A DNA stretch of 64,000 bases from Escherichia coli. Its GTDB lineage: Bacteria > Pseudomonadota > Gammaproteobacteria > Enterobacterales > Enterobacteriaceae. Positions 30,001 to 33,000 of this stretch are shown here, in pieces. The stretch lies in NCBI RefSeq assembly GCF_013315695.1, contig NZ_CP054353.1; one strand, written 5' to 3'. Each line of letters opens with the position of its first letter. Position 1 is the first letter of the stretch. The position numbers are program-made.

Positions 30001-33000
30001 CGTTTTATGGCGCATCCTCAGGTGAAAGGACGTCGGGTATATGGACAGGTTGGGTTCAACTTTGCGGCGCATGCGCGGGGGATTGCCTTTAACGCCGGGG
30101 AGTGGCCGCTGCTGACGTTAACCGTTCCCCGTGAAGAACTTATTTTTGAAAAGGGAAATGTCACCGTTTATGCGGACTCCGCCGACGGGTGCCGACGTTT
30201 GTGCGAGTGGGTAAAAGAGGCCGGTACAACGACGCAGAACGCACCACTGGTGGTGGATACCGCCCTCAATGGTGAGGCATATAAACAACAGGTTGCGCGC
30301 GCCGTTGCGGAGATCCGCCGTGGCGAGTATGTCAAAGTGATTGTCTCGCGCGCCATTCCCCTGCCATCGCGGATTGATATGCCCGCCACGCTGTTATACG
30401 GGCGGCAGGCAAACACGCCTGTGCGCTCGTTTATGTTCCGTCAGGAAGGACGCGAAGCGCTGGGCTTTAGCCCGGAACTGGTGATGTCAGTGACGGGCAA
30501 TAAAGTGGTCACTGAACCGCTTGCGGGCACCCGCGATCGCATGGGAAACCCGGAGCATAATAAGGCGAAAGAGGCAGAACTGCTGCACGACAGTAAAGAG
30601 GTGCTTGAGCATATCCTTTCTGTCAAAGAAGCTATTGCTGAACTGGAGGCCGTTTGCCAGCCGGGCAGCGTGGTGGTTGAAGATTTAATGTCGGTTCGCC
30701 AGCGCGGCAGCGTTCAGCATCTGGGGTCTGGCGTGAGCGGTCAGCTTGCGGAAAACAAGGATGCCTGGGATGCGTTTACCGTGCTGTTTCCGTCGATTAC
30801 CGCCTCAGGTATCCCTAAAAATGCTGCTCTGAACGCGATTATGCAAATTGAGAAGACGCCGCGAGAGCTTTATTCCGGCGCAATCCTGCTGCTGGACGAT
30901 ACGCGCTTTGATGCGGCGCTAGTTCTGCGTTCCGTATTTCAGGATAGCCAGCGCTGCTGGATACAGGCGGGGGCGGGAATCATCGCGCAATCTACGCCGG
31001 AACGCGAACTGACAGAAACCCGGGAGAAATTAGCGAGCATTGCGCCCTATTTAATGGTGTAGGAGTAACTGTTTTCTAACCTCACAACCAGACTGTCCAA
31101 AGACAATTGAGTCGCTCTTTGATTCCTCTGTGACTCTATTGTCTTCTTTTGGGATAAAATAGGTGTTTTTCGTCATGAAGTTGATAAAAGTCTATATAGA
31201 ACCACCTCTTGTGGAGGTGGTGGTAATTTGCCAGAGTGTGGGATTCGTTAGTATACTATGGGATAAACTTATTTTTACCAATTGTATAAGGCGGTGCATA
31301 AGATTCTCGGCATGCTTCCAGATAATCCGACCACCACTGCATCATCGTTTTGCGGGCTTCCAGGTGCTCTGCCTTATGAATATAAGCCATGCGCACGGTA
31401 TTGCGCTCCTGATGACTCATCTGGCGTTCTACTGCGTCCTTTGCCCATAAACCCGATTCCATCAGCGCACTGCATGCCATTGCCCGGAAGCCGTGACCGC
31501 AGATATCCTTTTTCGTGTCGTAACCCATCACCCGCAGTGCCTTATTGACCGTGTTTTCACACATTGGCTTATACGGGTTATGGTCGCCGGGGAAGATCAG
31601 TTCATTATTACCGGTGATATCCTTAATCTGTTTCAGAATGGCGATGGACTGTTCTGAGAGGGGGACGATATGCGGCATTCGCATTTTTGCCCCGCGGCCG
31701 GAATAACGCACGCCAATAATGGGTTCTCGCGTCGCGGGTATCGTCCAGACTCGGTTTGTGAAATCAATCTCTGACCAGCGGGCGAAACGCAGTTCACTGG
31801 AGCGAATGAACACATGCAGCATCAGCAGAACGGCATGCCGGGTCAGTTCACGGCCCTGATGATATGCCCCAATACGTTCAAGCAGTTCAGGCAGCCGCTC
31901 CAGCGGCAGGGCAGGATAGTGCCGTCTGACAGGAGGTGTGGTCACGCCGCCAAGGTTTGCTGCAGGGTTCGTATCGATTAACTCCTGATGGACCGCATGG
32001 CGCATTATGTTACTCAGGTGCTGCCGTGTGCGGGACGCAACCTCCAGCAGATCTTTTTCCTCGATCCCTTTCAGCAGGTCAATGAAATGACGGGGTTTAA
32101 GTTCTGATACAGGTAGGTTCCCGATGACCGGAAAGATGTGATTGTTCAGGCTGGCAAGCAGACGGTCGGCGGTGTTCTGCGACCATTTCCTGTTACTTTT
32201 ATGCCACGCCAGCGCCACGTTTTTAAAAACTTTCTCCGGTGTTCGTGAGCCACGTTCAGCAGCCCGCTGCTGTACCGGGTTGATATTCAGCGCCAGTATT
32301 TTACGGATACCTTCACGTTGCTGTCGCGCATCAGACAGGGAGATGGCTGGATAGGCACCCAGCGCAATGCGGGATTCTTTACCGCTAATACGGTATTTGA
32401 GATACCAGTGGCGGGAGCCACCCGGCTTGACCCGCAGATACAGACCGTGAGAATCGGAGACTTTAAAGGGTTTATCAGAAGGCTTGAGGGTGCGGATTTT
32501 TGCGTCGGTAAGGGATATATGGGGGTCACTCCATTATCGAACTAACCTGACCCCAGATTTGACCACCAATTTTTCCCGATGCGTAGGGTAAAATCAAAAT
32601 GCACCGAGAAGAGTTTTCACACTAACCTGTTGAATCAACATCAGATAAAGATTCGCAAGGATGCATGAAAACAGAAAATTGGCTCCTCTGACTGGACTCG
32701 AACCAGTGACATACGGATTAACAGTCCGCCGTTCTACCGACTGAACTACAGAGGAATCGTGTGAACGGGGCGAATATTACTTAGCGGTACCTTGTCTGTC
32801 AACACTAAATTTCATAAGCCATTTCAATTGGTTAATTAACCTTCAAACTTGTTAATTAATGAACATTCGTCGCCGAAAACGAGTCTGTATCATTAGCGTG
32901 ATGCAGTCTCTGCAAAGGATCTTGTTGATAAAATTGACAGAAACGTTGCCACAATGAAGGGAAACGAGGAGCAAAAAGTTCTGGGGCGCTAAAGAAATAT

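Follow-up and report, generated by a model that had tools for sequence, protein, structure and literature searches.

Published work presents the common-type HPI of E. coli as fixed in the chromosome and spreading by homologous recombination, and it bears a right-border deletion, described as unique, that affects the genome next to it (Schubert 2009, PMC2606025); its fixed status has been restated since (Auvray et al. 2021, PMC8209727). The integrase gene of this island, intB, has been singled out as its most diverse gene, "only affected by random mutations" (Paauw 2010, PMC2801613). The mobile HPI-ICE forms with functional integrases, namely ICEEc1 of ECOR31 at asnV, ICEKp1 of Klebsiella and the HPI of Yersinia pestis and Yersinia pseudotuberculosis, offer the other point of comparison for the DNA analysed here, a 64,000-nucleotide stretch of E. 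coli sequence (the window). The island in the window and the HPI-ICE forms share the asn-tRNA target, the leader that precedes the integrase gene (int) and the domain layout of the integrase; the integrase itself is the same one, 97-99% identical in the window to the Raoultella and Klebsiella copies. But while the HPI-ICE forms keep the ATG start codon of int and both direct repeats, to which Yersinia adds an excisionase (Hef), in the window the codon reads ATA and attR is gone.

To which of these does the island in the window belong? It is the published fixed, common-type E. coli HPI. The island is inserted beside mtfA at the tRNA-Asn gene asnT (32680-32755, minus strand; called by ARAGORN and collinear with K-12 mtfA-asnT), int adjoins the tRNA gene, and the full ybt-irp-fyuA set follows in canonical order, with irp2 and irp1 being pseudogenes in this clone; the yersiniabactin core of ybtS, ybtX, ybtQ, ybtP, ybtA, irp2, irp1, ybtU, ybtT, ybtE and fyuA, delimited from ORFs and from the RefSeq annotation of the identical genome MSB1_4I, spans 2359-31062. 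The fyuA-side border is deleted, and the deletion has taken the direct repeat and the adjacent backbone with it. Thus the asnT site, the order of int and then ybt/irp/fyuA, and the fyuA-side deletion are all shared with the published common-type island (PMC2606025, PMC8209727), from which the island in the window shows no structural difference.

The ends of the island were mapped in two ways. A core search finds the 17-bp att core CCAGTCAGAGGAGCCAA at the 3' end of asnT (attL; 32679-32695, minus strand), its sole copy in the window; a second core (attR) was not found anywhere in the 64 kb at a tolerance of up to 3 mismatches, which confirms the remark in the first-pass annotation that the right-end direct repeat is missing. 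Alignment of the empty K-12 site shows that serU-mtfA-asnT collinearity stops exactly at 32679 and resumes at 1355, inside yeeJ; the 587 bp of K-12 backbone missing at the fyuA-side border comprise the spacer between asnT and yeeJ plus the initial 218 bp of yeeJ. The resumed backbone (1033-1355, minus strand) matches the right-border deletion reported earlier (PMC2606025). Between the deletion junction at 1355/1356 and fyuA lies an island remnant of about 1 kb (1356-2358), which is devoid of an att core according to the core search and the K-12 alignment and has no Pfam or NCBIfam match to an excisionase. The mapped junctions and the literature uphold the proposal, made when the locus was first read, that the island is fixed in the chromosome, but not the part assigned to the ATA codon: it is the loss of attR that immobilises the island and, since ATG-intact strains carry the same border loss, the ATA is a consequence of immobility, through relaxed selection, and not its cause. 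The junction has also created a composite reading frame: an ORF at 959-1765 on the minus strand spans 1355/1356 and fuses about 137 codons of island remnant, without a family match, to the inverse-autotransporter beta domain of yeeJ; RefSeq lists it as a 249-aa "inverse autotransporter beta domain-containing protein", as though it were intact.

The integrase frame (int/intB; 31256-32518, minus strand; 420 codons plus stop, delimited by ORF, domain and allele comparison) lies 161 nt 3' of asnT and opens as TAA..GGAG..CAT ATA TCC CTT ACC, that is, *..H-I-S-L-T; the order on the minus strand is TCGA TAA TGG AGT GAC CCC CAT ATA TCC CTT ACC GAC GCA AAA ATC CGC. The in-frame TAA stands at 32536-32534 and the GGAG Shine-Dalgarno (SD) element at 32532-32529, 10 nt 5' of the ATA; the codon CAT (32521-32519) directly precedes the ATA (32518-32516), which is followed by SLTDAKIRTLKPSDKPF, with the codons from TCC to CGC encoding SLTDAKIR. 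From the ATA the frame runs uninterrupted for 420 codons and closes at a TAG (31258-31256). Ahead of codon 101 the frame contains no ATG, GTG or TTG; codon 101 itself, a GTG at 32216-32218 (minus strand), is the first canonical start in frame. A different start upstream of the ATA was considered and ruled out, as the TAA is only six codons upstream and there is no start codon in between. The first-pass annotation had described a frame open from just past an in-frame TAA and reading SLTDAKIR after an ATA, with the next in-frame start about 100 codons downstream; the window sequence agrees on every point, the last being correct for canonical starts.

Is ATA the ancestral codon at this position? 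A scan of one genome per species retrieved 80 related integrases of 56-99% identity, with the N-terminus captured in 78. The aligned start codon is ATG in 75 of these 78 relatives from other Enterobacterales, and a 76th (L090) has its ATG displaced one codon later; the two exceptions are an ATA in the E. albertii copy and an AGA in the Rosenbergiella copy. The nearest relatives, from Raoultella planticola (99% identity), K. pneumoniae (97%) and K. spallanzanii (94%), have ATG behind an identical leader, and the solved N-terminal domain of a "CP4-like integrase" (PDB 3jtz) aligns residue for residue from position 2 of int (E=2e-45). Other E. coli HPI int alleles begin ATG TCC or ATG TTC. The ATG in relatives and in these other E. 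coli alleles identifies the ATA (32516-32518, minus strand) as derived, the start codon having undergone G>A at its third base, at 32516. The earlier claim that ATA sits where the start codon is expected is therefore sound, and the alternative, that integrases of other HPIs begin at a different, intact codon, was not seen when the comparison was run: they start at the same position, with ATG. As to the two exceptions, int of E. albertii NBRC 107761 (L083, position 3001) reads ATA TAT TTA at its start and that of Rosenbergiella metrosideri (L079, around 2998) reads AGA at the aligned codon; start-codon loss appears to have arisen independently in other members of the family and to be a recurrent fate of island integrases.

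A single base differs from the reference, as it would if the ATA were a sequencing or assembly error in the window; however, the same ATA 33-mer is present in 919 independently assembled complete genomes, on which ground an error is rejected, and over 34.6 kb (1-34647) the window is 100% identical to MSB1_4I, an Australian E. coli isolate from a rectal swab (NZ_LR898874.1), so that this explanation retains a negligible probability. The frequency of the allele comes from a census with 33-mers centred on the codon, a design that forces every 28-base megablast seed to span it. Of 5,426 complete E. coli genomes, 919 contain the ATA 33-mer, Nissle 1917, UTI89 and ATCC 25922 among them, and five ATG haplotypes occur in 83, 195, 539, 409 and 130 genomes (1,356 hits); together, ATA and ATG account for 2,275 hits, to be compared with 2,329 genomes that have any match to the region, with a few genomes counted under more than one haplotype. 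With about 40% of copies, the ATA allele ranks as a major polymorphism, not as a peculiarity of one strain. It is already present, and annotated, in hundreds of public genomes; no mention of the ATG>ATA change was found in the literature searched, a scope outside which some subscription-journal papers fall.

The DNA ahead of the start codon has been kept far more faithfully than the gene. Alignment of the relatives delimits a conserved leader (32519-32593, minus strand) composed of direct repeats TGGTGGTCA and TGGGGTCA, an inverted copy TGACCCCCA, the TAA and the GGAG SD element; immediately before the start codon it is nearly invariant as GGAGTGACCCCCA(T/A). Across 60 distinct relatives, whose proteins share only 56-99% identity, the 75 nt 5' of each int start are much better conserved than the protein that follows. 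The inverted copy, either TGACCCCCA or TGACCACCA, abuts the start codon, and the SD element lies between the repeats. These repeats are probably Int arm-type or autoregulatory binding sites; in an alternative reading, GGGGTCA and TGACCCC form a hairpin with the SD element in its loop. The 3' copy is an exact complement now of the one and now of the other 5' direct repeat (CCCCC vs CCACC), and this switching resembles repeated protein-binding sites more than covariation. In the window allele, the SD element and the rest of the leader are unchanged.

The protein encoded behind this leader has the arm-binding, central and catalytic domains of a P4/CP4-57-type tyrosine integrase, with matches to PF13356 Arm-DNA-bind_3 (residues 3-87), PF22022 Phage_int_M (98-191) and PF00589 Phage_integrase (224-384) that are all well above the curated cut-offs; what is missing, at the conserved N-terminus, is a canonical start. 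The protein has intact catalytic residues (R239, H342, R345, H369 and Y379), which are invariant in 66-67 of 67 relatives. From the Raoultella/ICE-type sequence the window allele differs by M1I, L29R, M74I, G156D and A391T and by one synonymous change; all 67 of 67 relatives have Gly at position 156, and at position 29 relatives have Leu or His, never Arg. Any protein made from the window allele would thus also bear G156D and L29R at conserved positions.

Could an integrase be made from the internal GTG instead? Initiation at codon 101, the first canonical in-frame start, would give a 320-aa product with complete central and catalytic domains and perhaps some activity, and the exact 320-aa protein, the form that several non-NCBI pipelines annotate, is recorded on at least 1,000 contigs. 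But this product would be devoid of the whole Arm-DNA-bind_3 domain (residues 3-87), while lambda/P4-type tyrosine integrases need the arm-binding domain for arm-site binding and intasome assembly. Moreover, the nearest GGAG lies 15 nt 5' of the GTG, a poor spacing, and in ATG alleles the same triplet is a plain and variable Val101 (V101L in two alleles); internal initiation of a working integrase is thus very unlikely.

If the ATA is derived, is the frame behind it still maintained by selection? When 17 common-type E. coli int alleles are compared with the Raoultella/ICE-type reference, 25 of 30 distinct variants are nonsynonymous, one of them nonsense (omega ~1.6), a proportion that fits the neutral expectation of 76% (p=0.52); many of the nonsynonymous changes are radical (L>R, L>P, L>Q, G>D, R>P). 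By contrast, ICE/Klebsiella-type alleles show 13 nonsynonymous to 30 synonymous variants (omega ~0.14; Fisher p=1e-5 against the common type): differences among the HPI-ICE forms are mostly synonymous, while omega in the common type is about 1 or higher. Because young polymorphisms can inflate dN/dS, the adjacent genes ybtS, ybtX, ybtQ and ybtP served as a control in the same six genomes, in which int has 23 nonsynonymous and 4 synonymous variants in 1.26 kb and the four ybt genes 23 and 30 in 6.1 kb (Fisher p=3e-4), all counts here, from 6-17 sampled alleles, taking distinct sites as independent events and ignoring recombination among alleles. Per kb, int and ybt cannot be told apart by the density of synonymous variants (3.2 vs 4.9, p=0.50), whereas that of nonsynonymous variants in int is five times as high (18.2 vs 3.8, p=3e-7). 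This control addresses the objection that int owes its raised dN/dS only to the excess usually seen among young polymorphisms: constraint is absent from int but present in the adjacent cargo genes. An integrase of the other kind was encountered in E. coli DA33133 (NZ_CP029574.1; L101), whose HPI-type integrase gene, at a tRNA-Asn gene beside nac (the asnV region), starts with ATG and has a single synonymous difference from the Raoultella copy; its island is probably of the ECOR31-like ICE type, and this copy is evidence that E. coli harbours constrained int (ATG, ICE-like) alongside decaying int.

Sister alleles carry independent disabling lesions on top of this relaxed constraint, as is usual for a pseudogene: the UTI89 copy (ATA) has an additional Q394* and is flagged as a pseudogene, the P276M copy (ATA) has an IS1 insertion, and the LHM10-1 copy (ATG) has a 347-bp frameshifting deletion, the same as the intB deletion of bp 124-470 described earlier (Paauw 2010, PMC2801613). 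It has to be asked whether such lesions were favoured. An active asn-tRNA-specific integrase with only attL at its disposal could target the three remaining asn tRNA genes, or else the pks island nearby, which has both direct repeats and a related integrase of its own; the repeated silencing of HPI int by ATA, nonsense, IS1 or deletion would then stabilise a virulence region, and the ATA would for this reason have swept lineages such as those of Nissle 1917, UTI89 and ATCC 25922. Positive selection of this kind is regarded as distinctly unlikely.

Against decay count a 420-codon frame that is still open, five intact catalytic residues, an unchanged SD element and leader, and a RefSeq call of an intact gene. 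The ATA could accordingly be a genuine weak start that maintains a low, perhaps IF3-sensitive, level of full-length active integrase. Bacteria do have genes with a conserved near-cognate start, infC (AUU) being one. As in infC-type genes, int of the window has an AUN near-cognate codon behind a normal Shine-Dalgarno element, here at 10 nt; genetic code table 11 includes ATA as an initiator, and in all the ATA genomes examined PGAP uses the ATA start; the allele is widespread (919 genomes); and AUA supports measurable initiation in E. coli, about 1-2% (sfGFP) or 0.1-3% (NanoLuc) of that at AUG (bioRxiv 10.1101/063800). Since table 11 permits ATA and AUA initiates weakly, the allele is a severe hypomorph and not a proven null, and judged by its sequence it may retain some residual Int activity. 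Yet, unlike in infC-type genes, which conserve their unusual codon and encode a protein subject to purifying selection, the ATA of int is a derived polymorphism in front of a neutrally evolving protein: the aligned codon is ATG in 75 of 78 orthologues and in 1,356 E. coli copies, the frame downstream is not under purifying selection and accumulates nonsynonymous changes at five times the density of its neighbours, ATA alleles gain further lesions (Q394*, IS1, G156D), there is no attR for Int to act on, and hitch-hiking with the selected ybt cargo would account for the high frequency. A maintained weak start is therefore unlikely.

In the reading that very probably applies, int is a decaying, unrecognised pseudogene of the common immobile E. 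coli HPI, in which a neutral G>A hit the start codon after attR had been lost and the resulting allele then hitch-hiked. An ancestral deletion would have taken out attR together with part of yeeJ and any excision function close by; once the right end of the island was gone, the integrase would have been left without a substrate, and purifying selection would have lapsed. The change from ATG to ATA, itself established by the comparisons above, would have been one of the neutral mutations that followed. As judged by reporter data published for other genes, an ATA behind GGAG would permit at most ~0.1-3% of normal initiation. The allele would have reached its high frequency within successful lineages and through homologous recombination of the whole region, as its distribution and earlier work (PMC2606025) suggest, and its rise would reflect hitch-hiking with the selected ybt cargo. 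On this account int would add nothing to mobility, and the island would be inherited vertically or moved passively by homologous recombination.

How do databases present such a gene? RefSeq/PGAP calls ATA alleles intact 420-aa "tyrosine-type recombinase/integrase" genes that start at ATA; in MSB1_4I, whose sequence is identical to the window, int is thus intact from ATA while irp1 and irp2 are flagged as pseudogenes. Met-initiated 420-aa and GTG-initiated 320-aa proteins (e.g., BAI55364.1) are each found on at least 1,000 contigs; pipelines disagree, and neither the 420-aa nor the 320-aa annotation signals the likely loss of function. It is because table 11 accepts ATA as a start that about 900 RefSeq copies appear as an intact integrase, and this inconsistency means that surveys using "intact integrase" as a proxy for mobility misclassify such islands. 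Even the product name varies, WP_024165620.1 being a "tyrosine-type recombinase/integrase" in one genome and an "integrase arm-type DNA-binding domain-containing protein" in another. The biological weight of the ATA allele is small, given that the literature has described the E. coli HPI as immobile, and explained why, since 2009: the relic integrase, though genuine, is unremarkable and brings no new concept to what has been published. The comparison of int with ybt in the same genomes is nonetheless a clean quantitative case of a mobility gene that drifts neutrally next to cargo under selection; in the literature searched, no such within-genome comparison of constraint was found for the common-type HPI.

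The cargo of this particular clone is itself damaged. The yersiniabactin synthetase genes bear three lesions: W1860* in irp2 (TGG>TGA; 17970-17972, minus strand), W1559* in irp1 (TGG>TAG; 12678-12680, minus strand) and a 127-bp frameshifting deletion in irp1 at about 11669 (minus strand), near codon 1896, between imperfect 11-bp repeats (GGCGACGCCTG / GGCGTCGCCTG). Among 5,426 complete genomes, just 2, MSB1_4I and OZ547117, have both of the irp lesions that were tested. Three independent irp hits in one clone suggest the loss of, or counter-selection against, siderophore production with an intact fyuA receptor; an irp-disrupted, fyuA-intact clone is a possible "cheater" genotype.

Beyond the island, the window contains a lambdoid prophage (33889-64000) at the tRNA-Ser gene serU (33747-33836). 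Strain 131 has the same int allele without this prophage, so it is not collinear with the window there. The prophage encodes an integrase (33889-34914), which RefSeq flags as frameshifted in the identical genome MSB1_4I, exonuclease VIII and the products of the cI, O and Q genes, and it carries phage-borne tRNA-Met and tRNA-Arg genes at 49368-49618; over parts of its length it is 92-96% identical to induced E. coli phages and to Stx/PPompW-type phages.
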